From contig JAJDYE010000037.1 of assembly GCA_022822905.1 (NCBI GenBank), positions 38,859-102,858 of the forward strand: a stretch of 64,000 bases of DNA, given 5' to 3'. The DNA comes from Acidimicrobiia bacterium (GTDB taxonomy: Bacteria; Actinomycetota; Acidimicrobiia; Acidimicrobiales; Bin134). Positions 9,696 through 57,644 of the stretch are shown piece after piece. The position numbers and the translations under genes were made by a program. How positions within the stretch are numbered: position 1 is the stretch's first letter; every line of letters starts with the position of its first letter. Under the pieces are notes generated by a model. That model did no database searches and was not told where the DNA came from. It saw only the letters and a program-made list of their open reading frames with translations.

Positions 9696-10475
9696 GTGGG
9701 AGAACTGCGAAAGTCCTTCCACGAAGAACTGGACGAGATCCAGGCTGGAATCGTGCGCATGGCCGCGCTGGTCACCGAGGCCGTTCCTCGGGCCACCGAG
9801 GCGCTGCTTGAGTCCAACCTGGAATTGGCCCAACAACTCATCACCGGCGACGACCAACTCGACGACCTGTCGGTGTACCTAGAGGAGCGCTGCCACCATG
9901 TGCTGGCTCTCCAGGCCCCAATGGCCAGCGATCTTCGGGCCCTCAGCTCCGCCCTCCGTTTGAATGCCGAACTGGAGCGGTCGGGCGACCTGGCCGTCAA
10001 CATCGCCAAGGCCACTCGGCGTATCTACGGCACCCGCTACGATGCCACCCTCCGGGGCCTGCTGGTGAGGATGAGCGAAGAGGCCTGCCGGCTGATGCGT
10101 CTGGCCATCGACTCCTACGTGGACGGCAACGCGGGACTGGCCGCCGCCCTCGACGACATCGACGACCAGCTCGACGGCCTGAACCGCGACTGTGTGCAGG
10201 CCGTGTTCCAAGCCCACAACGACGGGGCCATCGACCTTCAGGCCGCTGTGCAGCTCTGCTTGATCAGCCGGTACTACGAGCGCATCGGCGACCATGCGGT
10301 GAATATCGGGGAACGGGTGGTGTACATGGTGACGGGATGGCTTCCCGAGCACACCGGGTCGGCCCGATTGAAGATCCGAGAGCATCAGCACCTCGACGAA
10401 TCCGGTGGTGGCGCCAACGAGGGGCAAGAACACCCCCACATCGACGAAACCGACGAAGAGACCGACGAGGATTGA
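9696..10475 (+). CDS. phoU: phosphate signalling regulator PhoU (with His/acidic C-terminal tail)
   Basis: Two PhoU repeats (FHEELDEI...DDQLDDL; ERIGDHAVNIGERVVY). The GTG at 9696 was chosen as the start because the longer ORF overlaps pstB. Confidence 0.85.
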   Translation: MGELRKSFHEELDEIQAGIVRMAALVTEAVPRATEALLESNLELAQQLITGDDQLDDLSVYLEERCHHVLALQAPMASDLRALSSALRLNAELERSGDLAVNIAKATRRIYGTRYDATLRGLLVRMSEEACRLMRLAIDSYVDGNAGLAAALDDIDDQLDGLNRDCVQAVFQAHNDGAIDLQAAVQLCLISRYYERIGDHAVNIGERVVYMVTGWLPEHTGSARLKIREHQHLDESGGGANEGQEHPHIDETDEETDED

Positions 10476-10478
10476 CCC

Positions 10479-11651
10479 GTGATCGTGGCCCTCGTTGTAC
10501 TGGCCGCGGTGGTGGGCTTGGTTTTGGTCGGGGCAGTGGCATGGCGGGAGCACCGGCACTTTGTCGACGCCGAGGAGAGCCGCCGCCGAGACGATGAAAT
10601 GCACCGCCGCCATGAGGACGAGGTGGCGGAAAGCGAGACTCGTCTCCGGCTGTCGTTGGACGCCATTACCCAAGGAGTGGTCATGGCCGATGACGCCGGC
10701 AATGTGCTGTACCGCAACTCCTTCGCCCGGCAGTTCACTGAAGCCCGCCACGGGGAGGCTTTGGTGGAGGCCGCGGTGGTCGAACTCTTGGCCGAGGCGG
10801 CCCGGGGGAGAGCGGTTGAGCGGGAGGTCGAGCTGTTTGGACCCCCTCGCCGCTGCATGTTGGTGAGCGCCATGCCGCTGGCGTTGGAAGGCCGGGACTA
10901 CGGCTCGGTTGCCCTCATCGACGACATCACCGAGCCTCAGCGACTGGACGCCATGCGCCGGGATTTTGTGGCCAACATCAGCCACGAGCTTCGGACTCCG
11001 ATGGGGGCGCTCAGTCTGCTAGCCGAGACCCTGGCTGGCGAGCGCGATCCCGAGGTGGCCTCCCGACTGGCGATGAGGGTGCAGGCCGAGGCCATTCGGC
11101 TGTCCGACATCATGGACGATCTGCTGGAGCTCAGCCGGATCGAAAGCGATGAGTCTTCTGAGCGGGCACCAATCGCGATCCAGCATGTGATCAGCGATGC
11201 CCTCTCGCGGGCCAAGCCCTCCGCAGAGGAGAAGGAGGTTCCCATCGAAACCGTTCTCCCCGCGCTGGATCTGGTGGTCCACGCTGACCGTCGGCAGCTC
11301 ACCTCCGCGGTGTTCAACTTGTTGGACAATGCGGTCAAGTATTCGGAGGCCGCTCGACCGGTGAAGGTCACAACTCGGTTGGAGGGAGAATGGGTTGAGG
11401 TGGAAGTTCGCGATCAGGGCTATGGGATTCCCCAAGGCCACCAAGAGCGCATCTTTGAGCGCTTCTACCAGGTGGACCGGTCCCGAGAGCGTACCGATGG
11501 CGGCGTGGGCTTGGGTTTGGCCATCGTGCGCCATGTGGCCACCAACCACGGGGGAGAAGTCCGAGTGGAGTCGACCGTTGGTGAAGGTTCAGCGTTCACT
11601 CTGGTAGTGCCGATGTCCGAATTCCTGCAACCCATTGGCGCAAAAGCATGA
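10479..11651 (+). CDS. sensor histidine kinase, SenX3/PhoR-like
   Basis: N-terminal TM segment, PAS-like segment, H-box SHELRTPMGAL, N-box NLLDNAVKYS and G-box GGVGLGLAIV. Confidence 0.85.
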   Translation: MIVALVVLAAVVGLVLVGAVAWREHRHFVDAEESRRRDDEMHRRHEDEVAESETRLRLSLDAITQGVVMADDAGNVLYRNSFARQFTEARHGEALVEAAVVELLAEAARGRAVEREVELFGPPRRCMLVSAMPLALEGRDYGSVALIDDITEPQRLDAMRRDFVANISHELRTPMGALSLLAETLAGERDPEVASRLAMRVQAEAIRLSDIMDDLLELSRIESDESSERAPIAIQHVISDALSRAKPSAEEKEVPIETVLPALDLVVHADRRQLTSAVFNLLDNAVKYSEAARPVKVTTRLEGEWVEVEVRDQGYGIPQGHQERIFERFYQVDRSRERTDGGVGLGLAIVRHVATNHGGEVRVESTVGEGSAFTLVVPMSEFLQPIGAKA

Positions 11652-12395: not shown

Positions 12396-13679
12396 GTGAT
12401 CAACGTTCCGTTCTTGCGGCTGGTGAGAGTTCATGCCCTTGGCGCGGCGGGCGATGCCATGATCACCGTGGCGCTGGCGGGTTCTCTCTTCTTCTCCATC
12501 GATCCCAGCGCAGCTCGATTCCGGGTCACCCTCTATCTGCTGCTGACCATGGCCCCGTTCGCGGTGGTAGGCCCGCTGATCGGCCCGGCTCTGGACCGCT
12601 TTCGGGGCGGACGGCGTCCCATGATCCTCGCCATCAATGGGGGGAGGGCGTTCTTCGCCTTCCTGATGATCTCCAACATGGATTCGCTGCTGTTGTTCCC
12701 CCTTGCCTTCGCCATGCTGATTCTCCAGAAGAGCTACGGCGTGGCCAAGGCCTCCATGGTGCCGCTCATCTTGCCGAAAGAAGAGCAGTTTGTGGGGGGC
12801 AATGCCCGGTTGGCGCTGGTGGGGAGCGTCTGCGGTTTCATCGGCGCGGGTCCGGCGCTGCTGGCCAACCTGCTGGGGGGCGCATCGTGGACAGTGGGTC
12901 TGGCCATGGTGGTCTACATCCTGGCGGCGCTCTCCGCTCTGTCGCTGCCCCAAGGCCGCATTGCCCCTGAGCAGATTGACGATGAGGAGGCGGGCAAACT
13001 CCGCGGCATAGGTATCCGCAAAGCGGCGTCAGCCACCGGCACACTGAGGGCAATTGTGGGATTCATGACCTTTCTGGCGGCGTTCGCCTTGCGGGGTGGC
13101 GCCGACGACGTGAACCTCTCCGGGGTGGGCAAGGCATTCGGCGCCGGCGTCCGCCACGCCCTTCAAGGCGATGTGGCTTCTGACGCCAGCCCGGCGTGGA
13201 AGCTGGGGTTGGTAGCGGCCGCCTTGGTCTGCGGGTTTTTGGTCGGCTCGCTTCTGGCCCCCAAATTGCGGGACCGGATTCGTGAGGAGATCATCATCGG
13301 CACGGCGCTGGTCGCCCTGTTCTTTGTGGGCCTCCTGGCTGCGTGGGGTGGGGGATACGGCTCGACGCTGCTGCTGGCCCTGGGGGTGGGGATCACCGCC
13401 AGCGCGGGCAAGCTCTCCTTTGACTCCATCGTGCAGCGCGACGCCGAGGGGGCCAATCACGGGCGGGCGTTTGCCGTCTTTGAGACCCGCTTCCAGATCT
13501 TCTGGGTGGTGGGCGCGCTCATCCCCGTGGTCATCCCCATGCCCGCCCGAGTGGGCTTCATCCTTATTGCCGTAGCCGCCGCAGTGGCGGCGGTGCTCTT
13601 CTGGCTGCGGCGGACGCCTACTCAGGGAGGTCGATTCGGGCCAGCCACAGACCGGGGGCATCAACCTCAGCAGGCGTAG
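12396..13679 (+). CDS. MFS-type integral membrane protein
   Basis: 427 aa with about 12 hydrophobic segments and an MFS-like loop PALDRFRGGRRP. The last ~20 codons overlap the convergent gene. Confidence 0.6.
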   Translation: MINVPFLRLVRVHALGAAGDAMITVALAGSLFFSIDPSAARFRVTLYLLLTMAPFAVVGPLIGPALDRFRGGRRPMILAINGGRAFFAFLMISNMDSLLLFPLAFAMLILQKSYGVAKASMVPLILPKEEQFVGGNARLALVGSVCGFIGAGPALLANLLGGASWTVGLAMVVYILAALSALSLPQGRIAPEQIDDEEAGKLRGIGIRKAASATGTLRAIVGFMTFLAAFALRGGADDVNLSGVGKAFGAGVRHALQGDVASDASPAWKLGLVAAALVCGFLVGSLLAPKLRDRIREEIIIGTALVALFFVGLLAAWGGGYGSTLLLALGVGITASAGKLSFDSIVQRDAEGANHGRAFAVFETRFQIFWVVGALIPVVIPMPARVGFILIAVAAAVAAVLFWLRRTPTQGGRFGPATDRGHQPQQA

Positions 13680-14796
13680 GCAGCTCCCGGGCCGAATGCC
13701 ATAGCCGAGCCAGTCCGTCGGCGCCCGCCCGTTCCACCACCCCGCTGACGAAGGCCGATCCCCGGTCGTACTGGTCTTGGCTGAGCTCGAGGCCGAACAT
13801 CCGCTCGATGAAGCGGTCAGATGCGTCGGCTGTCACCCGTCGCCGCCTCAGGGCTTCGCTGAGGCGCTGGTATGAGCTGATGAGCCCGCGTCCGATGCTG
13901 TCCATGGTCCAGTCGACATATCCGGCGATCACCGTCACCAAGGCCGTGATCTGGGGCAGCAGAATCCGCTGGGCCGGCGATTGGATCGCCCCCAGGATGA
14001 TCTCGGGATCGCCCAGTGCCGACTGGAGATCGCCCAGTGAATCGGGGTTGGCCAGATCCAGTTCGCCCAGTCGGCTCTCCAGAGCACCGGGGTCGGCCTC
14101 GAATCCCCGGACATAATCGGCCAGCAGCTCTTCGATCCGCTGGCTCACATGGGGGATCGTCAGCACCGAATGGTGGGTTAGTTCGCTCAAGCACACCCAA
14201 AGCCGCAGGTCAGAGCGGTCTAAGCTCCACTCGTCGGCCAACGCGTCGATGTTGGCCGGCACCACCATCAAATCCGAGCCATCCCGGGGAATGGGCAGGT
14301 CGTACTGGCCCAGACTGCGGCGGGCGAGGTTGCCCACCATGCTTCCGGCGGTCATGCTCAGCATGACTGGGCCGATCATCTTCATGATCTGGCCGAACAT
14401 GGCTTGGGCGGGGTCGAAGGATGCCTCCTCCGCTTCAACCCGCCCCGACACGTTCCCGATGGGCTCCAGTAGATCCTGGTAGGCCTCCAGGGTTGCGGTG
14501 GCCCACTGAGTTCGGGTCACCGGCACGATCGTGGCGGCTTGGCCCTGGCGGGTTGTCGACAGGCCGGTGGCGTTGGCTACTTGGAGCTCGGCCACCCGGC
14601 CCAGCTCTTCCAGGGTGATGCGGTCGGCGGGGTCGACATTGGGCTCCGACTGGCCCTCGGTGGCCACTGCCACCGCGAACTGGCGCGCCGTCTCCCAGGT
14701 GTTCGCTGCCTGCTGCGAGAAGAGCTTGCCCAGGTCCCCGAAAATGGGCATCCCTTTGAAGGGGTTGAACTCCTCGGGCGAGTCGGGTTCGCTCAC
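13618..14796 (-). CDS. DUF2342-type (zinc-metalloprotease-like) protein
   Basis: 392 aa with the overall look of the actinobacterial DUF2342/TIGR03624 hydrolase family. The expected HExxH position reads SELTH, so catalytic competence is uncertain. Confidence 0.6.
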   Translation of the reverse strand: MSEPDSPEEFNPFKGMPIFGDLGKLFSQQAANTWETARQFAVAVATEGQSEPNVDPADRITLEELGRVAELQVANATGLSTTRQGQAATIVPVTRTQWATATLEAYQDLLEPIGNVSGRVEAEEASFDPAQAMFGQIMKMIGPVMLSMTAGSMVGNLARRSLGQYDLPIPRDGSDLMVVPANIDALADEWSLDRSDLRLWVCLSELTHHSVLTIPHVSQRIEELLADYVRGFEADPGALESRLGELDLANPDSLGDLQSALGDPEIILGAIQSPAQRILLPQITALVTVIAGYVDWTMDSIGRGLISSYQRLSEALRRRRVTADASDRFIERMFGLELSQDQYDRGSAFVSGVVERAGADGLARLWHSARELPTPAEVDAPGLWLARIDLPE

Positions 14797-19541: not shown

Positions 19542-22538
19542 ATGCGAAATCCCCGAGATGTGTTCAGGCCGCGCCCGCCATCTCGCCCGCGCTTCTCGCG
19601 CCGGTCCAAGATCATCGCCGGTCTCATCTTGGTGGTATTGCTGGCCGCCATCCTGTCTCTGCGGGGTACGGCCCGCATGTGGACCGATTACTTGTGGTTC
19701 GACTCCCTGGGCCACGGTGACGTCTGGACCGAGATTCTGGTCTACAAGATCGTCTTGTCGGTCATCTTCATCGCCGCCTTCTTCCTCCTCATGTACTCCA
19801 ACCTGGCAATTGCCGACCGGTTGGCGCCCCAAACCCGCCCACCGGGTCCTGAAGAGGAGCTGATACGCCACTATCACGACGCGGTTGGCCATCGCCGGCG
19901 GCTGGTAAGCGTGGTGATTGCCATCTTGTTTGCCCTTATCGTGGGCGGCGGCACCGGGGGAGAGTGGCAGAAGGCCATGCTGTTCTTCAACAGCGTGGAT
20001 TTCGGCATCGATGATCCTCAGTTCGACCGTGACATCGGCTTCTACGTCTTCCAACTGCCGTTCATCCAGTTCCTGATCAGCTGGTTCTTCCGAGCCCTCA
20101 TCATCGTGGCCGTCATCACCGCCATCGCCCATTACGTGAACGGCGGCATCCGGGTGCAGACCACCGGGCAGCGGGTGACTCCTCAGGTGAAGGTCCACCT
20201 GTCGGTTCTTTTGGCCCTGATCGCCCTGGTTCGGGCCGTGGGCTACTACTACGACCGGTTTGGCCTCAACTTTTCCTCTCGGGGACCGGTGGACGGCGCC
20301 ACCTTCACCGACATCAACGCCCAGCTTCCTGCGCTCAATTTGCTGTTGCTGATATCAGTGCTGTCGGCAGTGCTGCTGGTCATCAACATCTGGCAGCGGG
20401 GCTGGGTGCTGCCGGTGACCGCGGTGGGCCTGTGGATGGTGGTGGCCATCGTCATGGGCGCGATCTACCCCGCCATCATCCAGCGATTCCAAGTCGAGCC
20501 GGAGGAGTCCCAGAAAGAGGCGCAGTACATCTATCGCAACATTGAGGCCACCCGCCACGCCCTCGGTTTCGACAAGAACCCCGGTGACGACGATACGGCA
20601 GACAACGTCACCACTATCTCGTTAGACGAGCTCGACACGGTGATAACCGTTGAGGAGCTGGCCGGCAACCCGAGCGTGCGCAACATTCGGCTGTTGGACC
20701 CCGACATCGTCCCCAACGCCTTCCAGGTGGAGCAGTCGGAGCGCACCTTCTATACTTTCGGCGGCGAGGTCGACGTGGACCGCTACGAGATCGACGGGGA
20801 GATTACCGAGGTGGTGATCGGCGCCCGCCAGCTCAACGTGGCCGACGTGCCCCAGCAGTCGTGGGAGGGTCGTCACATCCAGTACACCCACGGGTACGGC
20901 GTGGCAGTGGCCCCGGTGAACTCGGTTACCACCCAGGGCTCCCCCGACTTCGCGGTGGGCGACGTGCCGGTGATGGCCAGCGACGACTTCGAGTTGACCC
21001 AGCCGCAGCTCTACATCGGCGAGGGACTTACCGGTTACGCCATCGTCGGGGCCTCGATTGCCGAGGTGGACTACACCGAGGCCAACGAGACGGTTCCGTT
21101 CGAGTACGACGGCGAGGCCGGGGTGGGCATTGGCAGCTTCTTCCGCCAGGCGGCGTTCGCCCTGCGCTTTGGTGACATCAATCCGCTGATATCCGGTTTC
21201 GTGGAAAGCGATTCCCGGATCATCTTCAACCGGGACCTGCGCCTCCGAGTGCAGAACCTGGCCCCGTTCTTGGAGTTGGACGCTGATCCCTATCCCGTGA
21301 TTTCCGATGGCCGAGTGGTGTACGTCGTGGACGCCTACACCACCAGCGACCGGTATCCCTACGGCCAGGTGCCCGATGTGAGCGACCTGGCGAATGGCAG
21401 TGGCCTGCACAAGAAATTCAACTACGTCCGCAACTCGGTGAAGGTGGTGGTGGACGCGTACGACGGCACCACCACGTTCTATGTGATCGACCCCGGTGAT
21501 CCCATCATCCAGGCGTGGCGGAAGATCTTCCCCGGACTGTTCCAGGACTTCGACCGGATGCCGGCCGACCTGAAGGGCCACCTGCGCTATCCCGAGGACT
21601 TGTTCCGGGTGCAGACCTCCATGTGGGCCCGCTACTTCATCGACCCTGAAGAGGCGGAGACCTTCTATGCCAACTCGGTGACCTGGGCGGTGGCCCAGGA
21701 TCCGGGCACCCGTATCACCGCTCGAACGTTCTTGGATGAGGTGACCGAGGCCATCGCCGCCGAGGAGACGGCCACCGCCGCGGCTACCCGTCAGCTCGAG
21801 CGGAGAATCCGTCCGTTCTACCAGCTTCTCCAGCTTCCGGAAGAGGACGATGTGGACTTCGTGATCTTCCGGACGTTCGTTCCGGTGTCGGGGTCGGGCG
21901 ACGATGAGGATGAGCGCAAGGAGCTCACCGCGTTCATTGCGGCCAAGAGCGACATCGACGAGTACGGGGAACTGGTGGTGTACACCGTGCCGGGGACCAG
22001 CATCCCCGGCCCGAGCATCGTGGATGCCAAGATCCAGGCCGACACCCAGATTGCCGACGCCTTCACCCAGCTCAACCAGCAGGGGTCATCAGTGCTTCAA
22101 GGCAACCTTTTGATGATCCCGGTGGGCAACTCCCTGCTGTTCGTGCGTCCCGTGTATGTGCAGGCCACCGGCGACACCGAACTGCCCCAGGTGAAGCAGG
22201 TGATCGCCGGTATCGGCAACGACGACGATTTCGTGCTTACCATTCGGCCGACGTTGGAGGAAGCGCTGAATGCCCTGGCCGACCCCGGCAGCCCGACGGT
22301 GGTGCCCGCCGAGCCCACAGTTCTCAGCGGAGACGATGGCGATGCCCAGCCCGAGCCGTCTGTCCCCGCCGACCCCTCGATTTCCGATGAGGCGCCCATC
22401 GACGCAGACACTCGTCAGGCGCTGAGCGAGCTCATCTCCGAGCTGCGCACCACCCAAGACTCCCTCGACGAGGACCGCCGCCGTCTCGACGGCCTCATCG
22501 AAGAACTGGAGTCGCTGCTGGAATCCGCTGGCGGCTAG
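19542..22538 (+). CDS. UPF0182 family membrane protein
   Basis: 998 aa. The N-terminus ...MWTDYLWFDSLGHGDVWTEIL is followed by about 7 TM segments and a large extracytoplasmic domain, which is the UPF0182 architecture. Confidence 0.9.
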   Translation: MRNPRDVFRPRPPSRPRFSRRSKIIAGLILVVLLAAILSLRGTARMWTDYLWFDSLGHGDVWTEILVYKIVLSVIFIAAFFLLMYSNLAIADRLAPQTRPPGPEEELIRHYHDAVGHRRRLVSVVIAILFALIVGGGTGGEWQKAMLFFNSVDFGIDDPQFDRDIGFYVFQLPFIQFLISWFFRALIIVAVITAIAHYVNGGIRVQTTGQRVTPQVKVHLSVLLALIALVRAVGYYYDRFGLNFSSRGPVDGATFTDINAQLPALNLLLLISVLSAVLLVINIWQRGWVLPVTAVGLWMVVAIVMGAIYPAIIQRFQVEPEESQKEAQYIYRNIEATRHALGFDKNPGDDDTADNVTTISLDELDTVITVEELAGNPSVRNIRLLDPDIVPNAFQVEQSERTFYTFGGEVDVDRYEIDGEITEVVIGARQLNVADVPQQSWEGRHIQYTHGYGVAVAPVNSVTTQGSPDFAVGDVPVMASDDFELTQPQLYIGEGLTGYAIVGASIAEVDYTEANETVPFEYDGEAGVGIGSFFRQAAFALRFGDINPLISGFVESDSRIIFNRDLRLRVQNLAPFLELDADPYPVISDGRVVYVVDAYTTSDRYPYGQVPDVSDLANGSGLHKKFNYVRNSVKVVVDAYDGTTTFYVIDPGDPIIQAWRKIFPGLFQDFDRMPADLKGHLRYPEDLFRVQTSMWARYFIDPEEAETFYANSVTWAVAQDPGTRITARTFLDEVTEAIAAEETATAAATRQLERRIRPFYQLLQLPEEDDVDFVIFRTFVPVSGSGDDEDERKELTAFIAAKSDIDEYGELVVYTVPGTSIPGPSIVDAKIQADTQIADAFTQLNQQGSSVLQGNLLMIPVGNSLLFVRPVYVQATGDTELPQVKQVIAGIGNDDDFVLTIRPTLEEALNALADPGSPTVVPAEPTVLSGDDGDAQPEPSVPADPSISDEAPIDADTRQALSELISELRTTQDSLDEDRRRLDGLIEELESLLESAGG

Positions 22539-22585
22539 CCGGGGGTCTGTCGGACTGATTCACTCTGGGTTTTGCGCAGGCTCTG

Positions 22586-22670
22586 GTGTCTGGTGGGGAA
22601 CCTGCTTAAAAGGGGGAACAGCGGGCAACAGCCGCCGAACAGCCACGCTCAACTCAGGTGGCGAAAGGGA
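22586..22670. repeat. partial, diverged third copy (E3) of the 242-nt spacer element (module I only)
   Basis: ctggtggggaacctgc...gaacagcgggcaacagccgccgaacagcc aligns by eye to 23586-23640 and 26467-26521. It lies just after the stop of small TM gene A. Confidence 0.7.
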
Positions 22671-22712
22671 TCAACAGCAATGTTCCCCGGCCCAACCGGG
22701 TATCGGGGATGG

Positions 22713-22985
22713 CTAGGAGTTGCCGCGGCGCAGGCGGGCACCAATTCTGTTCCACACCAGTGCTGAGCCAGCCACTCCCAAAACAGCCATTGGCAACACG
22801 AAGAGGAAAATCCACACCAGATGGCCCACCCATCCAGGCACCCCCAACAAATCCGCAATCCAAGGAATGCCGTCATAGAAAAGGCCCACGCTCATTACGG
22901 CACCGCAGAGGCTGGCACCAAGAGCAGTAGGACCAACTGGTGGTGTACCGTTGGCGCGGTGTGGTGGGGGGTTGTGAATGGTCAT
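22713..22985 (-). CDS. small 2-TM protein, paralog A (N-terminal MTIHNPPPH)
   Basis: Paralogous to B, C and D (..WIADLLGVPGWVGHLVWIFLFVL..ARLRRGNS). The second ATG was chosen because only it is in frame in all paralogs. Confidence 0.6.
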   Translation of the reverse strand: MTIHNPPPHRANGTPPVGPTALGASLCGAVMSVGLFYDGIPWIADLLGVPGWVGHLVWIFLFVLPMAVLGVAGSALVWNRIGARLRRGNS

Positions 22986-23002
22986 GCCCCCCACCATACA
23001 CC
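22958..23002 (-). promoter_or_regulatory. conserved start-region hairpin or palindrome (copy A)
   Basis: ggtgtggtgggggg (22958-22971) and ccccccaccatacacc (22987-23002) are inverted repeats. The start codon lies in the ~15-nt loop. Confidence 0.7.
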
Positions 23003-23028
23003 TTCGGCCCCTAGGTGCCTAGGGGCGC

Positions 23029-23357
23029 TCAGTGTTCCTCCCATTCGGCGGGGTCGCGGTTGGCCCACGCCAACCACCAGTCCACCAACGCCTCGATGCG
23101 GGCCTGGAGCCAGCGGGCCAGTTCCAGTTGGACTCGGTCTCCTCCATCAGGTCGAGCAGGCCGGCCAGCGCCCCGCCCATAGACATCAAAGCGGGCTCCA
23201 ACAGCACCAGGGCCAGCAGGTAGCCGCCGACCGCCTCGGTATCGACCAACTCCAAGTCGAGGTCGTCCTTGCGCTCCCTCAACGCCTCCAGAGCGCCGGA
23301 GACCAAGCCCAGCACCTCGACCCAGGCGCGCTCGCCCGCATCCAAACGCCGTGCCAT
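23029..23357 (-). pseudogene. small all-helical protein, apparently frameshifted
   Basis: MARRLDAGERAWVEVLGLVSGALEALRERKDD...LLDLMEETE continues sensibly only in another frame (VQLELARWLQARIEALVDWWLAWANRDPAEWEEH*). The shift lies near 23140-23150. Confidence 0.55.
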
Positions 23358-23442
23358 ACCGAAAACCTCCATCGGTCGGTCGCTGACATTCCTGACCGGC
23401 CATTCTGGCCGATCCGTCGCGACCCCCGATGGAGTTCACCCA

Positions 23443-23684
23443 CCCTTCGGGAAGGTCGAGCTTTCGAGCTACCAAAGGCCGCGGCCAGACCCGAAGGGGA
23501 ACCAAGCAATACAGCTCGAACCTCACAACTTGTCTGGCCTGGCGGGGATTGTGTACATCCACGTCCACGCAGCCTTTGGTAGCTGGCGGGAACCTGCAGC
23601 AACAAGAGAACAGCGGGCAAGTCCGCCGAACAGTCAGGGAAGATCGGCGGCGACTCAGCCGGAGGGTGGAAGGGCTACGAACCC
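23443..23684. repeat. 242-nt spacer element, copy E1 (possible structured RNA or cis-regulatory leader)
   Basis: Differs at 6 of 242 positions from 26324..26565. Nested perfect inverted repeats: gctaccaaaggc 23468-79 / gcctttggtagc 23572-83, and ggccagac 23483-90 / gtctggcc 23532-39. Confidence 0.9.
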
Positions 23685-23965
23685 CGGTGGTACAGGCGGG
23701 CCTTGACTCGGCTCCACCTGATTATGAACCCAACGATCAGCAACAGCACGAAGAGAAGCCACACCAAAGGGAGCACTCCTTGAGGTGTCCCGGACCAATC
23801 CGCAATCCAGGAACCGGCCGACCCCGCAAGAACATAGGAGATGAACAAGACGTTGGCCCCACTAAAAACCGCAACGACCAGCAGCACTTTTGTTGAGTTC
23901 TTGTCGGCTTTGGCGCGCAGGGCGGTATTGTCGGGGGGGTGTGGTGGGGGGTTTTGGTACTTCAT
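23675..23965 (-). CDS. small 2-TM protein, paralog B (N-terminal MKYQNPPPH)
   Basis: ..SWIADWSGTPQGVLPLVWLLFVLLLIVGF..ARLYHRGS. Paralogous to A, C and D and has the same start-region hairpin. Confidence 0.6.
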   Translation of the reverse strand: MKYQNPPPHPPDNTALRAKADKNSTKVLLVVAVFSGANVLFISYVLAGSAGSWIADWSGTPQGVLPLVWLLFVLLLIVGFIIRWSRVKARLYHRGS

Positions 23966-23982
23966 GCCCCCCACCATACACC
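23938..23982 (-). promoter_or_regulatory. conserved start-region hairpin or palindrome (copy B)
   Basis: ggtgtggtgggggg (23938-51) / ccccccaccatacacc (23967-82). Confidence 0.7.
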
Positions 23983-24168
23983 TTGAAACGGGCCGGGGCC
24001 CTGCCGCTGAGAGCCGATCTGGGCGGCGTTGAGCCCCTGGACCCCCGGGGAGAAGGAAAGTGCGGGCCGGACCCCAGCGGCCCCACAAGCGCCCCAGCGG
24101 GGCCGCCACAGCGGCCCTGAGCGGGCCTCGGCGGGTTTAGCGGTCTCGGGTTTTGCGGGGGTGCGGTT

Positions 24169-26313
24169 CTAGCGGCAGCGCACCGGCTTGTCGTCGCCTA
24201 CTTTTTTGTTTCCGGCGATCTTGGCCTGCATTCCGATTTGGTACCAACCGGCGTTCGGCACGTCGAACGTCGTCGAGGTGCCCGCGACTGCTTTTTGGAG
24301 TCCGCGGTGGCCGCGGTTTTTTGTCTCGTTTGCCCAGATGTCGGGTTTCAGGGTTTCGGGGGTCTTGCTCCAAGAAACCGATATGACCCAGCCCGAGCCC
24401 GACGACTGGCACGAAACTGAGTCGAACGCTAAAGAGGGCTTCGGCTTGGTGGGGGTGGCGGTGCCGGAAACCCAATCAGAGAACCCCTCGGCGTTGAACG
24501 CCGCCACCCGCACGTCATAGGCCGACCCCCCCGAAAGCCCGCTGATCGTGTACGAGGTCGCCAAGTCCGAGCCATGCTCCAAATCCTCGAACTGGTCCGC
24601 AGCCTCGGACTCAGCCCAACTCTGAGCCCCCGACATCCACTGCACCCGATACCCGAAACCAGCCCCAGGGGTTGTTGCAGATGCGGTCCAAGAAACCGCG
24701 ATCTCCCCCACCCCAGCACTCGCAGACAAACCAGAAACAGAACCAGGAACTGACTGGCTTGAATCGTCGGAATCGGAATCGCTATTGAGGTATTTATCCA
24801 CAAGCGGGCAGCCATATTCGAGCACATAGTGAGTAGTAAGACCGACTCCAAAAGCAATACCAATTCCTACTGCAAGTGGTGGCGCGGTTACTCCCAAAGC
24901 AGCCAATACCGTCGTCCCGCTGTTAGCTAGCAACGCACCGCCAACAGCAGCTATCCCATTGCTTGACACTGCCCTTGTGTGGCTGTTGGCACATGCCAAT
25001 TTCAGTGCCTCTCCCGCTAAATTGAAGAGAGTCCAAAACTGGGCGAGGGGCAGTCCACCTATGAACTGCAAAGCAGCACGCTCTAATGCGTGTTTTGCAG
25101 GGCCGGGGAGTTTGTCGTATTGGTCTATGATGATCTTCCCGCCCTCAATGACGTAATCAACGCCTTTGATAGCGATCTTCCCGCCCTCTCTCACTAAATG
25201 CGTCACACCGTCAACAACGATTTGATAAAGGTTGATCGTTGTGCCTGTATCTTCTACAGCCTTGTAGCAGTCATGGGAGCCGTCCTTTTCCCATTTGCCG
25301 AGGTTCGCTGAGGCTGTTTTACCGCTTTTGTAGTATTCGTTTAGCTGTTCGTGCGTCATCAGCTCGGCAGTTGCCGAGGTGTATACGAAATAGATGATCG
25401 GCAGCGGCGGTGTGTAGCTGTGGCTTGCCGGGCAGGGGTGGTCTGCATGGCAGAAGGTCTCCCCCCTGCGGGTATGGAGGTGCTGGCCGTCGGGAACATT
25501 GCCAGGTGTGCAATTGCCGGTGTTGGGCCTGGTGTCGCAGCCGAGAACCGATACATCCCCGTGACTATCGCGAACGTGGCCGTAGACCGTTACCCTCTCG
25601 TCTTCGTACTTACCGGGAGCGCATTTCGCATGGTCGGCGTGGCAGGTGTTCCCGTGGGGATGCTCGCCCGGCTTGCAACCGTTGCCGCCCGGTTTGGGGG
25701 TCGGGGCCGGAGTGGGGGGCGGATCAACCCTGGGGGTCGGCGGGGGATCAGGGTCAGCCGTGGGCTCGGGCGTGGTGGTGGGCTTCGCCTTGGGCGGGCA
25801 GGTGGCGTCGTGGTCGATCCAGGTTCCGTTGCACTGTTTGAGCGTGTAGTGGCACGCCCCCGTCGAGCCGTGGCGGTGGGATAGGAAGCTGCACGGCTTC
25901 GGGGTGGGTGTGGGCTTGGGGTGGACTAGGAAGATGCTGTGGCAGCCGCCCCAGCCGGCGTGCTTGTGGCTGCCGCCGGGACACTCCGGCTTCGGCGTCG
26001 GCGCAGGTGTGGGCTTGGGGTGGACTAGGAAGATGCTGTGGCAGCCGCCCCAGCCGGTGTGCTTGTGGCTGCCGCCGGGACACTCCGGCTTCGGCGTCGG
26101 CGCGGGCGTGGGGGCCGGGGTGGGCTTGGGGTGGGTGTGGGTGTAGTTGTAGGCGTAACACCCAAAGTCGCCGGTGGGCTTGCATTCGACTTGGTGGGCT
26201 TCGGCGGTGGGCGTGTTGTCGGGGGCTGCGAGCACCAGCCCGGCGGCCAGCAACAGCGCCGGGACCAGCACCGCCAGCACACGCCAGACACCCCGCTTGT
26301 TGGATGCGGCCAT
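24169..26313 (-). CDS. secreted multidomain protein: Cys/His-rich repeats, Pro/Thr linkers, unknown central domain with Gly-rich hydrophobic hairpin, FN3 domain, C-terminal beta domain
   Basis: Signal peptide MAASNKRGVWRVLAVLVPALLLAAGLVLAA. Two 33-aa units KPECPGGSHKH(T/A)GWGGCHSIFLVHPKPTPAPTP. FN3-like segment PGSVSGLSASAGVGEIAVSWTA...YRVQW...YTISGLSGGSAYDVRVAAFNAEGFSDW. Confidence 0.8.
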   Translation of the reverse strand: MAASNKRGVWRVLAVLVPALLLAAGLVLAAPDNTPTAEAHQVECKPTGDFGCYAYNYTHTHPKPTPAPTPAPTPKPECPGGSHKHTGWGGCHSIFLVHPKPTPAPTPKPECPGGSHKHAGWGGCHSIFLVHPKPTPTPKPCSFLSHRHGSTGACHYTLKQCNGTWIDHDATCPPKAKPTTTPEPTADPDPPPTPRVDPPPTPAPTPKPGGNGCKPGEHPHGNTCHADHAKCAPGKYEDERVTVYGHVRDSHGDVSVLGCDTRPNTGNCTPGNVPDGQHLHTRRGETFCHADHPCPASHSYTPPLPIIYFVYTSATAELMTHEQLNEYYKSGKTASANLGKWEKDGSHDCYKAVEDTGTTINLYQIVVDGVTHLVREGGKIAIKGVDYVIEGGKIIIDQYDKLPGPAKHALERAALQFIGGLPLAQFWTLFNLAGEALKLACANSHTRAVSSNGIAAVGGALLANSGTTVLAALGVTAPPLAVGIGIAFGVGLTTHYVLEYGCPLVDKYLNSDSDSDDSSQSVPGSVSGLSASAGVGEIAVSWTASATTPGAGFGYRVQWMSGAQSWAESEAADQFEDLEHGSDLATSYTISGLSGGSAYDVRVAAFNAEGFSDWVSGTATPTKPKPSLAFDSVSCQSSGSGWVISVSWSKTPETLKPDIWANETKNRGHRGLQKAVAGTSTTFDVPNAGWYQIGMQAKIAGNKKVGDDKPVRCR
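25912..26109 (-). repeat. 99-bp tandem repeat x2 inside the 714-aa gene (encodes the 33-aa Cys/His unit)
   Basis: Units 25912-26010 and 26011-26109 differ at 3 positions on direct reading. Confidence 0.95.
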
Positions 26314-26323
26314 CTTGGTGGCT

Positions 26324-26565
26324 CCCTTCGGGAAGGTCGAGCTTTCGAGCTACCAAAGGCCGCGGCCAGACCCGAAGGGGAACCAAGCAATACCGCTCGA
26401 GCCTCACAACTTGTCTGGCCTGGCGGGGATTGTGTACGTCCATGTCCACGCAGCCTTTGGTAGCTGGCGGGAACCTGCTGCAACAACAGAACAGCGGGCA
26501 AGTCCGCCGAACAGTCAGGGAAGATCGGCGGCGACTCAGCCGGAGGGTGGAAGGGCTACGAACCC
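26324..26565. repeat. 242-nt spacer element, copy E2, ending 10 nt upstream of the ATG of the 714-aa gene
   Basis: Same length as E1, with 6 substitutions and no indels. Carries a relic ...RREGS* stop context like the C-termini of paralogs A and B. Confidence 0.9.
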
Positions 26566-26606
26566 TCGCGGCGCTAGCGTGTGTTGGAAGGAGTCAGGCT
26601 TGGCCG

Positions 26607-26849
26607 CTAAGCATCAGGGCAGCTCCGGCGGGCTTTATATCTCTTCTCAACCACAGAAACACCGGTCACCACCAGCACCAGCACGAAGAAACACCACACC
26701 AGAACACTCACCCCTAGAGGCATCCCCGACCAACCTTCGATCCAGGAGCCGACCAGCCCAAAGCCCAACCAAAAGGCGATGCTCCCAACAACGGCACCAA
26801 TACCACCCATCAGCCTCGCTGAGCGGCGAGCCGCTGAGGGATTTGTCAT
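26607..26849 (-). CDS. small 2-TM protein, paralog C
   Basis: ..GSWIEGWSGMPLGVSVLVWCFFVLVLVVTG.. aligns with paralog B. The start is uncertain (ATG 26849 or TTG 26891). A different 7-bp hairpin, gctcttg/caagagc, sits just upstream of the ATG. Confidence 0.5.
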   Translation of the reverse strand: MTNPSAARRSARLMGGIGAVVGSIAFWLGFGLVGSWIEGWSGMPLGVSVLVWCFFVLVLVVTGVSVVEKRYKARRSCPDA

Positions 26850-26916
26850 AGCGCTCTTGTCGGTTGCAAGAGCGACCGCGGGGCTGGCCAAGTAGTCCGG
26901 CTAGGGGTGGAGCGCC

Positions 26917-27228
26917 TCACAAGCGTCTTCGGGCGTAGTGGCGGATCGCTCTTACCGCTAACCATATTGCACAGCAAATTCCTAGTCCGCCTAAAACCCA
27001 CCACATCACGGCTAGGCCGCGCATCACTTCAGGCCCGTCTCCTAGATTCAGGATATGGGGATCGACGAATCTGCTGATGACGTAAAACCAGATTGCCACA
27101 AGACCCCACGTCAGCCAGCTTGGCAAAGCCGACTTCGATAACAGTTTGGACCCTGTAGCTCCGGGTTTTTCTGTGGCACCAGAGTCGGTATTGTCGTGGG
27201 GGTGTGGTGGGGGGTTGTGTTCGTCCAT
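26917..27228 (-). CDS. small membrane protein, paralog D (N-terminal MDEHNPPPH)
   Basis: Shares the N-terminal HNPPPH..DNT motif and start hairpin with A and B. Has two hydrophobic segments. Confidence 0.6.
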   Translation of the reverse strand: MDEHNPPPHPHDNTDSGATEKPGATGSKLLSKSALPSWLTWGLVAIWFYVISRFVDPHILNLGDGPEVMRGLAVMWWVLGGLGICCAIWLAVRAIRHYARRRL

Positions 27229-27246
27229 AGCCCCCCACCATACACC
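27201..27246 (-). promoter_or_regulatory. conserved start-region hairpin or palindrome (copy D)
   Basis: ggtgtggtgggggg (27201-14) / ccccccaccatacacc (27231-46). Confidence 0.7.
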
Positions 27247-28077
27247 TCGGTTCGGGCCAGGGCCTCCACGTCGCTCCTAGAGCCCGCTGGGGCCGGTTAG
27301 GGCCTCCCTAGTCGATTGAGTCCAGGGGGGGTGCCTGAGGTTGGGGTCAAACCCCGTAACTCGCCGCTGAGAGGCCGAGAATGGGGGGATTTGGGGTCGA
27401 TCTGGGGCGGCGAGCCCTCAGCGGCCCGTTGGCCGGCGAGGCCCTGGGCGAGTGTGCGGGCCGGTGGCGGGGGGTCAGCGCACCGGGCATGCGGTCAAGT
27501 CAGCTCGGCCTGTTGTGGTCTCTGGCGTGGGGGGCTACCGAGTCGATGCGGCGGCGGACTTGGACCTTCTGCATTTCGGCATCAGCGGCGATAGCGCCTA
27601 TTCGGCCATGAGCCAGCAAATCTCCTCCTCCCACTTCGCGAGTAGGGAGCGCATCCCGGCTATGCGGTTCATTCTGTCGTGGAGCGCATCCAGTGGGTGT
27701 TCGTCATCCCACAAGCACGGACTCATACTCGGGCAGCATATAGTGGCCATTCTACGGGGTACGGCGGTATCCCTGTTCGATGGGGTCAGGCCGCTTTGCA
27801 GCGGCGGTGGCGATCGCGCCAGCGGCGGGCTATCACGTCGTCTGGCAAGCGGTGGGGCCGCTCGAACTCGATCACCTCGTGGGGGTACCACATGGCCGCG
27901 GCCCGCAAGCCCGGCGACTTGGCCCGCCCCCGGTCGCCGGGCGGGTAGAAGCGCGGGCCGCTCACCGCGGCCTTTCGGGCTGGGGCTTGCGGCGGTGCTC
28001 GGCGACGGCCTCGACGCGGGTGCCGTCGTCCAGCTCGAGCAAAGGCACAGCATTTCTTCGGGCGGCAAGCCGTTTCC

Positions 28078-29109
28078 ATGATTTGGGACTTCGCGGAGGC
28101 GAATCCGTTTTTCACTTCCACTGGAAGTTTGGAGACTGCCTTTTCCATTGTTGCCGATGTGCTCCAATCCCTGCCTTCTCTTGTTCACATCGCTGGAAGG
28201 GCAAGCGAACTAGATGCCACTGCGGCTGCTCGGAAGGTGGTCATGGTGTCGACGGATCCGCCGTATTACGACAATATCGGCTATGCGGATTTGTCGGATT
28301 TCTTCTATGTGTGGCTGCGACGCACGGTGGGTGGGGTGTTCCCGGATGTGTGCTCGACGCTTCTGGCGCCCAAGGCGCAGGAGTTGATCGCGGCGTCGTA
28401 CCGTCACGGCGGCGACAGGGATGCGGCCGAGGAGTTCTTCGAGGGCGACCTCCAGAAGGCCCACATCGCGCCGGTGGATGTGGCGCAGGCCGCCATCGGG
28501 CCGGGCATGGCGGTTTTCTCCCGGTACAGCCGGGTGATCGAGGCCGACGGCGCACAGGTGGGGGTGCGGGCCGCGCTGTCTGCCGTCAACCGGGTGCTCG
28601 ACGAGACCCTGGAGGAAACTGGGGCCGAGTTGGACTCCGACACCCGCTGGGCGCTCACCTGGCACGCCCAGCATGGCTTCGAGTCCGGCGACTACGGCTC
28701 AGCCGAGCAGCTCTCCAAATCCCGCAACACCTCAGTGGAGGGCCTCGTGTCGGCCGGCATTGTCGAGTCCCGGGCCGGCCGAGTCCGCCTCATACCCCGC
28801 CATGAGTTCGACGAGGACTGGTCTCCCGCCCAAGACGAGCGCCTCACCGTCTGGGAGATCACCAACCACCTCGCCCGCAAACTCGAAACCCGAGGCGAAC
28901 AAGCCGCCGCCCGACTCCTCGCCCAGGTCGGCGGACTCGCCGACGCGGCCCGACTCCTCGCCTACCGTCTCCACCACATTTGCGACCGCAACGGATGGGC
29001 CGCCGACGCCCTCGCCTACAACAGCCTCGCCGCCGCCTGGCCCGACCTCACCCAACAAGCCCACCAACCCCCCACCGAAGACCAGGCCAACCTCGCCCTA
29101 ATTGCCTGA
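28078..29109 (+). pseudogene. C-terminal fragment of a DPPY-motif DNA methyltransferase (resembles DUF1156-family methylases of anti-phage loci)
   Basis: VMVSTDPPYYDNIGYADLSDFFYVWLRR is motif IV of amino-methyltransferases. No AdoMet-binding motif I or N-terminal domain is found upstream in any frame. Confidence 0.55.
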
Positions 29110-29181: not shown

Positions 29182-29397
29182 TTAGCGGTTCAGCCACTCC
29201 TCCCGTGTGTAACCTGCTTGCTTGAGCAATCGAAGCAGGAACGGGCCGGCAATCTCACTGTCGTTGGGGATGACTTGTCTGTGGGTGCCCTTGATCATGT
29301 ACTCGTGATTGCCTCCTGACCGTGGTCCTATCCATCCGCGTTCGGTCAAGAACCTGATGAGTTCGCGGCGGGTGGTTGGAGGGACCCGCCTGCTCAT
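29182..29397 (-). CDS. hicA: type II toxin HicA-family mRNA interferase
   Basis: MSRRVPPTTRRELIRFLTERGW...GGNHEYMIKG..RQVIPNDSEIAGPFLLRLLKQAGYT matches the HicA/YcfA pattern. ATGA overlap with the upstream partner. Confidence 0.75.
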   Translation of the reverse strand: MSRRVPPTTRRELIRFLTERGWIGPRSGGNHEYMIKGTHRQVIPNDSEIAGPFLLRLLKQAGYTREEWLNR

Positions 29398-29666
29398 GTA
29401 GGCGCAGCGACAAGCCCGTTGTGAAACGTGGGTATCGGCTGCCCGATCTGCTGGCCGAGTTCGACCCATCCGTAGAGCACCTGTCGAAGTTTGCCGCGGG
29501 CCTCGTCGGGAGTGGAGCCAAAGGCGGATGCACCCTGGCACTCAGGGTTCTCGGCCCACCATCCCACGAGGACTCCATCATCATCTCGTACCTCTTCGGT
29601 GGACGCCCCCGCAAGGGCAGCATCCAACCAGCACTCAAGCGGAAGCTGGGCCGTGGGCTGTGACAT
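29394..29666 (-). CDS. hicB: type II antitoxin HicB-family
   Basis: 90 aa with ..GWWAENPECQGASAFGSTPDEARGKLRQVLYGWVEL..GQPIP, a HicB/UPF0150-like fold signature. Confidence 0.65.
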   Translation of the reverse strand: MSQPTAQLPLECWLDAALAGASTEEVRDDDGVLVGWWAENPECQGASAFGSTPDEARGKLRQVLYGWVELGQQIGQPIPTFHNGLVAAPT

Positions 29667-29737
29667 GCCTGCACTGTAACACCGACAATCGGCTTTCACC
29701 CCGACACGCACCGTCGCCGATCTCCCACAAGGCGGCT

Positions 29738-30193
29738 TGAGAATTCCCCCTTTTCGTGGAGACATGCTCTGCAAGGAGAGGAGCAATGTGAGGTTCCCCC
29801 TGTTGTCCGGTCATTTGGTTTGTGCGGCTTGTTCTAGTGGTTGTCGGTGGTGGTCCTCCCATTCTGTGGGGGTCAGGTAGTCGAGGGCAGAGTGGATTCC
29901 CCGGCTGTTGTAGCGGCCGGTCCAGGAGAAGATCTCCTGGCGAGCGTGGTCTCGGGTCGCGAACCGGGTCTGTGCGGAGGACTCTCGCTTCAGCGATGAG
30001 AAGAACGGCTCGACGACGCTGTTGTCCCAGAGGTTGCCGGCCCGCCCCGCGGATTGGCGCATCCGGTTGCGGGCCAGCGCCGAGGCGGAGTCCCTGGAGA
30101 GGTATCGCGGGCCGCGGTCGGAGTGGAATATCGCCTCGGTGGTGCGGAGACCTCTGGACGCGGCGGCTGTGTGCAGGACGTCGGCGACAGCCC
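29738..30193 (-). mobile_element. IS3-family insertion sequence, 3' remnant only (transposase C-terminal fragment plus terminal inverted repeat)
   Basis: Frame 29811..30191 reads ..EAIFHSDRGPRYLS...NLWDNSVVEPFFSSLKRE...YNSRGIHSALDYLTPTEWE (DDE/rve core tail). The terminal sequence TGAGAATTCCCCC...GGAGAC at 29738-29767 looks like an IS3-type IR. Confidence 0.75.
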
Positions 30194-30688
30194 GGTGCCC
30201 TTGTCGCCCTTCGGGTTGTCCACATCGCGGGTCTTCGGCGTGTACGTGTAGTAGTCGGGGTTGCCGTCGCCGTCGTTGTCCGGGCCGGGCGTGTTGCCGT
30301 ACACGCATGTGCTGGCCTGCCCGTCCGAGTCGGTGGCAGGCCAGTTCCCGTCGGCCGACGAGCGCGACTCCTCCACCGGCTCGGGAGTGCTGCCATCGGG
30401 GATTCCAGTGGCGTCTTTGCGGTCGTCGAGCTTTTCCTCCTCGCCGGGCCTGTTGCCGGGGTTGGTGGTCGTCGGGTCCGGGTTCTTGTTGTCCTTGTTG
30501 CTCGGCATCAACCTCAGGGACCAGGGCCGGCTGCCGCTGTCGGGTGCGAGCAGCGGATCGGGGCGGGGTTTGGCGTCGGCGTCTTCCTCCGTGTCCAGCT
30601 TTGACGGCAGCAGGTCGCCGCGCAGGATCAGCCCCGAGGTGAGCATCGCCATGGCGGCGAGCCGGGCGACGCGGCTTCTGGTCAGCAT
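30194..30688 (-). pseudogene. N-terminal fragment of a secreted protein (Asp-rich DNDGDGNPD calcium-binding-like motif), truncated by the IS3 remnant
   Basis: Signal peptide MLTRSRVARLAAMAMLTSGLIL. Protein-like sequence ends at ..NPKGDKGTG, exactly where transposase homology begins in another frame. Confidence 0.55.
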
Positions 30689-55041: not shown

Positions 55042-55135
55042 CATCTGAGGGCTGGCATAGGAGAGTTGCCCCCTTCCCCCTGAGCTTCCCCCTTCTCGCG
55101 CCACGCGCGCCCCCGAAGGCCCGAAAGGAAGTTCA

Positions 55136-56053: not shown

Positions 56054-56170
56054 CCCGCTTACCCAACAAGCTCGCCGAACCCCCTGGCGACCGCCGGGCT
56101 GTCACCAACGAATCATGGAAAACCAGGTGACAGCCCGGCGGGAGGGGGGTAAAGTAATCAACCCACTCGA

Positions 56171-56244
<74 letters not shown>

Positions 56245-57639: not shown

Positions 57640-57644
57640 GGCTG

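Follow-up and report, generated by a model that had tools for sequence, protein, structure and literature searches.

Translational riboswitches such as those of the SAM-II, preQ1-II and preQ1-III classes bury the Shine-Dalgarno (SD) sequence in a pseudoknot. We describe here a leader RNA that may be compared with these, found in a 64,000-nucleotide (nt) stretch of DNA from an Acidimicrobiia bacterium (contig JAJDYE010000037.1 of assembly GCA_022822905.1), hereafter the window. It belongs to a minus-strand locus at 22,539-27,300, between the 3′ end of the UPF0182 gene and a decayed defence island. Along that strand the order is D, C, E2, BIG, B, E1, H, A and the remnant E3, where A to D are small genes, BIG encodes a large secreted protein, H is a small open reading frame (ORF) and E1 to E3 are copies of a repeated element, E. 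Both this order and the position of all the ORFs on the minus strand had been given in the initial annotation, and the ORF listing agrees. Like the riboswitches, the leader of E is a cis-acting element of the 5′ untranslated region (UTR) on the strand of the gene that it would regulate, it has conserved junction nucleotides, and its SD sequence pairs with a loop segment beside a stem, the pairing being kept by compensatory changes. We read the locus as a recombining, strain-variable array of RNA-gated surface-protein modules in sponge-associated Acidimicrobiia, with a probability of about 0.62. FN3 domains are reported to be enriched in sponge-symbiotic Actinobacteriota (PMC11706023).

A module of this array comprises a small gene for an HNPPPH membrane protein, the element E of ~260 nt, and a gene for a secreted modular protein. 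The small gene has a conserved start region of its own, with the start codon between the arms of a 14-base pair (bp) inverted repeat, and E would place a terminator-like hairpin, a sigma-70-type promoter and a leader RNA of ~150 nt before the large gene. The product of the latter is predicted to have Cys/His mini-modules and a central domain with a pair of hydrophobic helices, then FN3 and Ig-like domains, and the small proteins may function as its partners in the membrane. In the leader, Stem I, Stem II and a variable hairpin between them meet in a three-way junction, and an anti-SD segment in the Stem II loop pairs with the SD sequence just upstream of the AUG, which would hide it from the ribosome. 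Through this pairing, some signal would gate translation of the large gene by way of the fold of the leader, be it a pseudoknot or an alternative conformer. The repeated sequences of E and of the start regions would also supply homology for recombination, and with insertion sequence (IS) elements this could allow modules to be duplicated, truncated and swapped between strains.

The structured leader RNA of element E

Alignment of divergent copies of the leader and analysis by RNAalifold gave two stems. Stem I is a long-range helix of 12 bp, formed in the window by GCUACCAAAGGC with GCCUUUGGUAGC, and Stem II has 8 bp, GGCCAGAC with GUCUGGCC. A third helix was added by eye, in which CCCUUCGG in the loop of Stem II pairs with CCGAAGGG, overlapping the Shine-Dalgarno GAAGGGAG, 10 nt before the AUG. 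The nucleotides of the junction are conserved (UGGCCGCGG). Between the stems a hairpin (H1) forms in each of the 10 distinct versions of this segment, which are unrelated to one another in sequence and in length. Since the anti-SD lies inside Stems I and II while its partner lies outside, the third helix is either a pseudoknot or part of an alternative conformer.

The covariance model (R1) was built from Stems I and II only, leaving out the anti-SD/SD helix. It identifies 13 copies in 192 kb of sequence, E1 scoring 149.4 bits, and nothing further in the window. In the MAFFT alignment, which was not fitted to the model, 93.7% of cells pair, compared with at most 53.5% when the partners are slid, and 14 pairs are changed on both sides (1-4 in the slid controls); none of 500 shuffles reaches the score. 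After fitting to the model, 96.6% of cells are paired over the whole structure, compared with 33-53.5% when the partners are moved by 1-3 columns. Two-sided changes are seen at 16 of 34 pairs, and again 0 of 500 shuffles reach the score. There are seven sequence versions of Stem I, all complementary. Its pairs are compensatory at 10 of 12 positions and 99% paired in the fitted alignment, and those of Stem II at three of eight and 100% paired, both stems being included in the model. The anti-SD/SD helix, which lies outside the model, has three compensatory pairs out of eight and is 96.5% paired. At the level of sequence comparison, this covariation demonstrates the structure of the leader RNA.

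The conserved structure with compensatory changes is as expected of a cis-regulatory 5′ leader. Its position agrees, upstream of an ORF and in the sense orientation of a 5′ UTR, the transcription start being predicted. In 11 of the 13 copies the leader runs up to the start codon of a gene that lies on the same strand and encodes a signal-peptide protein.

E1 (23443-23705) and E2 (26324-26586) form a direct repeat of 263 nt with 94% identity. They had been annotated as conserved spacers; the repeat is real, but the element is not passive, for it appears to carry a promoter together with the covariation-supported leader. A terminator scan found the hairpin CGGCGG-ACUUGC-CCGCUG, followed by a U-rich run, upstream of the promoter. 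Of the 13 copies, 11 have the hexamer TANNNT (TAGGTT, TAGCTT, TAGGGT, TAACCT or TAGCCT) at a distance of 7-9 nt ahead of Stem I, and most of these have TTGNNN (TTGCCC, TTGTCA or TTGCTC) 18 nt further upstream. This arrangement suggests a sigma-70-type promoter (-35 TTGCCC, 18-nt spacer, -10 TAGGTT), so that E as a whole would consist of terminator, promoter and leader. E1 departs from E2 right after CCCGAAGGG, and thus it has other sequence in place of the downstream portion of the SD strand and of the start codon next to it. The third, partial spacer that had been proposed was recovered as E3, a remnant of ~70-100 nt recognized by three collinear words of 11-13 nt and a matching register in MAFFT. 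E3 marks the left border of the variable locus, and a remnant of the same type abuts UPF0182 (96% identity) in one of the relatives, L003 (related loci are given L numbers).

The 13 copies of E are distributed over nine loci, all of them sense-oriented relative to the flanking genes. We rejected a miniature inverted-repeat transposable element or other IS-derived repeat on account of this orientation and of the lack of terminal inverted repeats; a scan of E for these and for target duplications found none. Rfam 15 gave no match at an E-value ≤ 1 in the window between 21500 and 29000, and none at ≤ 0.1, save one tRNA, for the divergent copies in L002, L005, L164 and L169. A pattern scan of IMG/VR for the RNA core gave 29 matches, all due to chance, with Stem I at most 9/11 paired. 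The same kind of scan in genome contigs gave only chance matches among the matches listed (at least 120), and a stricter pattern applied to metagenome contigs gave 12, of which one (L164) is genuine.

Modules, genes and their recombination

Application of tblastn, blastn and the covariance model reveals the same unit in nine loci, in which a small HNPPPH gene is followed by E and this by the gene of a BIG-family protein with a signal peptide. The cassette pattern of small gene, spacer and cargo that was recognized in the window is therefore present in eight further loci, and in other genomes too HNPPPH genes co-occur with Cys/His-rich secreted proteins. The UPF0182 site has different module arrangements in four strains. 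Besides that of the window, these are D-C-E-BIG-IS3 in L001, D-C-E-BIG-H-A-E3 in L003, and in L167 a B/C hybrid followed by E-BIG-B-E and a 5′ fragment of BIG. The module occurs at three other chromosomal sites (L002, L004 and L169). In L005 a full module is found on contig ctg98551_711x_c (30,634 bp), which is putatively circular and of high coverage, with a second leader copy (534-689) before the gene of a lipoprotein-like secreted protein; this protein has a Cys/His motif at its C-terminus and a DH..P..N motif like that of nucleases. A divergent leader copy lies at 6802-6942 of L005. By PHROGs, an HNH gene alone is recognisable on this contig. A gene call of 565 amino acids (aa) there (9954-11651) resembles a wrong-frame call over a repeat.

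Comparison of the window with L003 defines a recombinant block (Table 1). Within it the central module of BIG is unalignable and of low GC content (0.51-0.57), the identity of the 3′ end of BIG drops to 85%, and upB, B and E1 are present in the window but absent from L003. There are two unalignable central modules, type-1 and type-2, beside which D and C are 95-99% identical. L167 has the type-1 module of the window, followed by a B gene that is 91% identical. IS3 or IS110 elements lie inside the locus in L001 and L004. The strains therefore differ by block replacement, truncation and IS insertion, and from their sequences E3, the truncated gene C and a 40-codon fragment of BIG in L167 are scars of recombination. 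Both the recurrence of the module and its history of recombination are evident in these comparisons.

BIG begins with a signal-peptide-like segment, followed by Pro-rich linkers with Cys/His mini-modules and by a central domain with a Gly/Ala-rich pair of hydrophobic helices (~residues 468-498). Then come an acidic DSDSD linker, an FN3 domain and a C-terminal beta-sandwich bracketed by two cysteines. The description of BIG as a secreted Cys/His-rich protein of 714 aa, with one FN3 domain and a Gly-rich hairpin, was thus correct. The FN3 domain (Pfam PF00041, E-value 5.2e-08, 33.4 bits against a gathering cut-off of 25) covers ~90 of the 714 residues. BIG has just eight database relatives, of which those with names are annotated as FN3 proteins of Candidatus Poriferisocius sp. 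HMMER, run with the central 241 residues over the full library, found only 23 proteins at an E-value ≤ 1e-3 among 1.84 billion, in which the domain is combined with different N-terminal repeats and different C-terminal domains. A tandem repeat of 99 nt (25894-26091, minus strand; 95% identity) encodes a KPECPGGSHKH.GWGGCHSIFLVHP module, present in two copies in the window and in P0004, and in three in P0002. The single weak match of a sequence-profile search of the PDB fell in a low-complexity stretch and was judged spurious. By analogy with other FN3 eukaryotic-like proteins of sponge symbionts, BIG is probably displayed at the surface and faces the host or matrix.

The small proteins end in a basic C-terminus and are strongly hydrophobic in one or two segments. 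The initial annotation took all four for paralogues with two transmembrane (TM) segments. This holds for A, B and C by pairwise BLASTP (A-B 35%, E-value 2.6e-9; B-C 51%, 1.3e-13; A-C 41%, 2.7e-6), but the likeness of D to A and B is limited to the first 14 residues (M..HNPPPHP.DNT) and the promoter/upstream region. C is a 5′-truncated copy, since it is without the HNPPPH N-terminus while L004 keeps a full-length HNPPPH and C-like ORF (13460-13777). The HNPPPH family has six database members, all of this lineage. D is 99% identical in L001 and L003, copies of A in L003 and L004 are 93-97% identical, and L170 has a lone HNPPPH gene. Identification as a holin (Phage_holin_3_6) or a SAVED-fused 2TM effector was rejected, the best matches having E-values of 0.2 (12 bits against 28.4) and 0.022 (15 bits against 29.5), respectively.

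Ten start regions from six loci, those of A, B, D and seven relatives, can be aligned, and share (C)CUGGCCCG...AGGUGUAUGGUGGGGGGC-AUG. The upstream in-frame ATG chosen by gene callers (MVGGM...) is out of frame in D, so that the second ATG is the common start. In these regions codons 5-9 (CCCCCCACC-ACACC) have their inverted complement in GGUGU-AU-GGUGGGGGG. In D (Table 1) TATGGT fits a TANNNT -10 sequence, GGTGG is SD-like and the start codon is in the loop; elements of the same type are found at A (~22959-23006) and B (~23936-23985). The repeat can be read in two ways. It may fold at the RNA level into a hairpin of 14 bp whose loop holds the AUG, with a predicted -34 kcal/mol (z -1.6), or, if TATGGT is the -10 sequence of a leaderless mRNA, it may be a DNA inverted repeat over the start site. 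Homology had also been seen between 24003-24070 and 27363-27462. Two collinear 11-mers (E-value 0.014 each) are present, and it is solid only for the 18 nt beside the start codon. Short G+C-rich words (GGCCGCTG(T/G)GG and CTCTCAGCGGC) are repeated at variable spacing upstream of the start regions, in the window at 24003-24120 and 27360-27470 (minus strand) and in L002 at 8390-8450 and 9170-9260; these may be binding sites for a regulator. A poly-C tract in codons 5-7 of gene A is C6 in the window (22959-22985) and C7 in L003 (10423-10450), where the ATG is consequently out of frame. The difference could reflect slipped-strand phase variation or a homopolymer assembly error.

H had been described as frameshifted. 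However, its frame break is not specific to the window, since L003 and L004 share it without any indel, and at the position of the window's TGG they read TGA. All six database homologues of H end at NWN-stop, and the change of TGA to TGG in the window has thus extended the frame. A recent frameshift was rejected, because a search for homologues with a ‘repaired’ H gave only short ORFs ending at the same stop. The N-terminal ~30 codons differ from those of L003. By its sequence relationships H is a small lineage-specific ORF. E1 precedes H only in this strain, so H, the second of the two cargo genes initially proposed, is no regular cargo of the module. Past the stop position of H (23029-23120, minus strand) the -1 frame encodes a helical stretch of 31 residues (ELARWLQARIEALVDWWLAWANRDPAEWEEH), which L003 and L004 also conserve; neither a slippery site nor a start codon was seen for it.

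UPF0182 (19542-22538; Pfam E-value 6.7e-248) lies on the plus strand, and E3 ends at its stop codon. The locus is therefore convergent with UPF0182, and does not follow it in the same direction as had been thought. Across UPF0182 and the genes beyond, the window is collinear with three other assemblies at 93-97% identity. To the right the locus directly adjoins a fragment of an HmaB-like methylase gene, a decayed defence-system gene; with the HicA/HicB-like pair and the IS3 remnant (Table 1) this places the locus in a variable island. In L001 and L003 a DUF8371 gene and an AAA_14/DUF4143 gene are found beyond the point of the methylase fragment. Positions 54781-63999 of the window are syntenic (80-89% identity) with the L169 contig of a more distant relative. 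In L169 a small-gene/leader/BIG-like module (P0009) is inserted, adjoining PemK and Gp49/HTH toxin-antitoxin (TA) genes, where the window is without a module. Relatives of the locus are almost confined to sponge-associated Acidimicrobiia, namely Candidatus Poriferisocius, which belongs to Acidimicrobiales, and its kin. The literature that we found on Poriferisocius has no description of this locus. Against Pfam, PHROGs, PADLOC and NCBIfam, fn3 is the sole match of all the locus proteins, and sequence searches of the PDB and Foldseek bear out the earlier view that, one FN3 domain apart, no known family is represented.

Table 1. Coordinates in the window of the features of the locus and of the genes to its right.
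Feature	Position	Strand	Description
BIG, 714 aa	24169-26313	-	ORF and domain searches
Small gene D, 103 aa	26917-27228	-	HNPPPH N-terminus; hydrophobic segments at ~residues 68-96
Small gene C, 80 aa	26607-26849	-	Two hydrophobic segments; without HNPPPH N-terminus or promoter of its own
Small gene B, 96 aa	23675-23965	-	HNPPPH N-terminus, two TM segments, basic C-terminus
Small gene A, 90 aa	22713-22985	-	HNPPPH N-terminus
H, small acidic helical ORF	23019-23357	-	Relatives of 62-95 aa, ending NWN-TGA
D start region	27199-27246	-	Motif GGTGTATGGTGGGGGG, inverted complement of codons 5-9 (CCCCCCACCACACC); inverted repeats I3-I5
Element E2	26314-26606	-	Terminator-like hairpin 26492-26509; predicted -35 TTGCCC 26496-26501 and -10 CAGGTT 26472-26477; leader
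Structured 5′ leader RNA, copy E2	26308-26470	-	Covariance-model match, 169.5 bits, E-value 4e-41; AUG 26311-26313
Leader E2, Stem I	26453-26464 with 26349-26360	-	RNAalifold, covariation counts
Leader E2, variable hairpin	26423-26451	-	
Leader E2, Stem II	26413-26420 with 26364-26371	-	RNAalifold, covariation counts
Leader E2, anti-SD/SD helix	26372-26379 (anti-SD) with 26324-26331 (SD strand)	-	Covariation counts
Element E1	23434-23705	-	Hairpin 23611-23628; predicted -35 23615-23620 and -10 23591-23596; leader RNA 23434-23589
E3, truncated E element	22539-22712	-	Hairpin/promoter region and segment like the 5′ strand of Stem I kept; breaks off at UPF0182 stop
Recombinant block	23275-25751	-	blastn of window against loci, GC profile; flanks 96% identical and collinear with L003
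HmaB-like DNA adenine methylase, C-terminal fragment	28078-29109, with 27452-28081	+	PADLOC PDLC00660, E-value 4.6e-115; ~340 of ~965 aa
HicA toxin / UPF0150 (HicB-like) antitoxin pair	29182-29786	-	Right of the locus
IS3-type integrase (rve) fragment	29811-30308	-	Right of the locus

Weighing the explanations

Could the locus be a polymorphic toxin/immunity array, a comparison already drawn in the initial annotation? BIG would then be a secreted, glycine-zipper-like toxin that inserts into membranes and whose variable module is exchanged by recombination, with the 2-TM proteins as cognate and orphan immunity proteins. The family is modular, a conserved hydrophobic central domain being flanked by N- and C-terminal modules that vary, yet BIG here and its relatives at the same site end in a conserved FN3 domain and beta-sandwich rather than in a variable toxin tip. 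The replaced block brings a new central module into the window together with the downstream gene B, a B-type gene follows the type-1 module in two strains (the window and L167), and two ORFs follow P0008 in L168, a small Gly-rich one with 2 TM segments and one that is HSPPPH-like. However, D and C hardly differ beside two unalignable central modules, small genes lie upstream as often as downstream, and that of L170 stands alone. There are several extra small paralogues, and TA genes, defence genes and IS elements are nearby, but Pfam, NCBIfam and PADLOC reveal no toxin, no trafficking domain (LXG, WXG, Rhs, CdiA, PT-HINT) and no immunity protein. With the evidence mixed, we consider this explanation unlikely, and weaker than that of an RNA-gated module array.

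The modules might otherwise be the cargo or the remnants of a plasmid or phage, E being mainly a sequence for recombination or integration. A complete module with a second E is indeed carried by the 30.6-kb contig, whose name suggests a circular molecule at 711x coverage and which has an HNH gene. Modules occupy four or more unrelated chromosomal sites, beside IS3 or IS110 and defence or TA genes, yet no integrase or recombinase adjoins them in the window, L003 or L167. The central domain of BIG is of low GC content, but tblastn found no relative of it in 50,697 phage or 72,556 plasmid records, and the IMG/VR matches were not genuine. E has neither terminal inverted repeats nor target duplications. 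Its orientation and register to the start codon are constant, and compensatory changes keep an RNA pairing that a DNA recombination site would not need. A mobile origin is plausible as the means of dissemination, given L005 and the IS elements, but it provides no account of the RNA covariation, and as an explanation of the whole we find it decidedly unlikely. It is highly improbable that E is just a duplicated intergenic terminator and promoter whose structure has no regulatory role, in an array arising by neutral tandem duplication. The 94% identity of E1 and E2 is such that their similarity within the genome needs no selection, and folded as a single sequence E is only modestly better than shuffles (z -2.5). 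Yet copies at ~70-80% identity keep every stem through multiple two-sided changes, the seven versions of Stem I are all complementary where slid controls fall to 33-53% paired, and hairpin H1 persists in segments of unrelated sequence and length.

The reading as RNA-gated modules faces difficulties of its own. The covariation comes from only ~7 independent sequence versions in one narrow lineage, six copies being nearly identical, and an outer CUUGGU/ACCAAG helix (85% paired) does not covary. The SD partner is missing in E1 of the window and in L002a, so that not every copy can work as proposed. The start of transcription, the terminator and the regulation of E are all predicted, and at the -10 position both copies in the window have CAGGTT in place of TANNNT, where 11/11 elsewhere fit; CAGGTT may be a shared down-mutation or the result of gene conversion between E1 and E2. 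As no ligand or signal can be named, the description of the leader as a riboswitch is not established. The small ORFs have no clear signal of purifying selection (the ratio of nonsynonymous to synonymous change, dN/dS). Comparison of orthologues gives pN/pS values of 0.15-1.5 on just 3-16 differences, and differences between paralogues are evenly distributed over codon positions; that the genes are coding is suggested by the maintenance of the ORFs and their hydrophobic pattern. Lastly, the N-terminal and central parts of BIG model poorly. AlphaFold2 gave a pLDDT of 47.6 for the whole protein, confident for the FN3 domain and C-terminal sandwich only, and 61.2 for the central domain (19 sequences), confident only for an alpha/beta subdomain of ~60 residues. 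A Foldseek search of the PDB with the central-domain model, a fold search that the initial annotation had proposed, found nothing with an E-value below 3.

Comparison with known systems

The locus resembles the CDI, Rhs and LXG toxin/immunity loci in its large modular secreted protein with modules replaced by recombination, its several small membrane paralogues and its position in a variable island. It differs in that BIG has no recognisable toxin, trafficking or immunity domain, that the variable part of BIG is central or N-terminal rather than the C-terminal tip, and that the small genes do not consistently co-vary with it. With integron cassette arrays it shares repeated conserved non-coding elements between variable genes in a single orientation. 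There is however no IntI integrase in or next to the locus, the only integrase sequence being the IS3-type rve fragment, and E contains no inverted repeat or imperfect palindrome of the attC type. Integron cassettes are mostly promoterless with attC downstream, whereas E lies upstream and would supply promoter, leader and SD sequence. We have therefore rejected an integron as the identity of the array.

In contrast to the SAM-II, preQ1-II and preQ1-III riboswitches, the leader of E has no match in Rfam 15, in the window and the divergent copies alike. It is larger, at ~150 nt with a three-way junction and a closing stem of 12 bp, and it is found in one symbiont lineage, before genes for secreted proteins of structural type rather than enzymes or transporters. 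It is, on the sequence comparisons made here, a previously undescribed RNA motif. It is tempting to see in it a riboswitch of a new class, so far confined to sponge-symbiotic Acidimicrobiia, which would sense a metal ion or small molecule from the sponge habitat and turn translation of the Cys/His-rich secreted surface proteins on or off; their composition hints at a possible link to a metal, and they may bind one. We regard this as rather doubtful. If true, it would tie surface display by the symbiont directly to a chemical cue derived from the host, and the leader remains a new motif even if it responds to a protein or to temperature instead.

Like the FN3 eukaryotic-like proteins of sponge symbionts, BIG has a Pfam fn3 domain above the gathering score, and its nearest homologues are FN3 proteins of Candidatus Poriferisocius. 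In contrast to these, its family is defined by an undescribed central domain with a hydrophobic helix pair, and it is associated with a dedicated RNA leader and small membrane-protein genes, a link that we have not found described. Two protein families not described before emerge from the locus, that of the small HNPPPH membrane proteins and that of the central hydrophobic domain with ~23 members, and the locus documents the shuffling of modules between strains at one chromosomal site. These sponge symbionts are uncultured, and their eukaryotic-like surface proteins are thought to mediate the interaction with the host. In linking a variable family of FN3 surface proteins to a dedicated leader RNA supported by covariation, the locus provides a testable handle on how such proteins are regulated.

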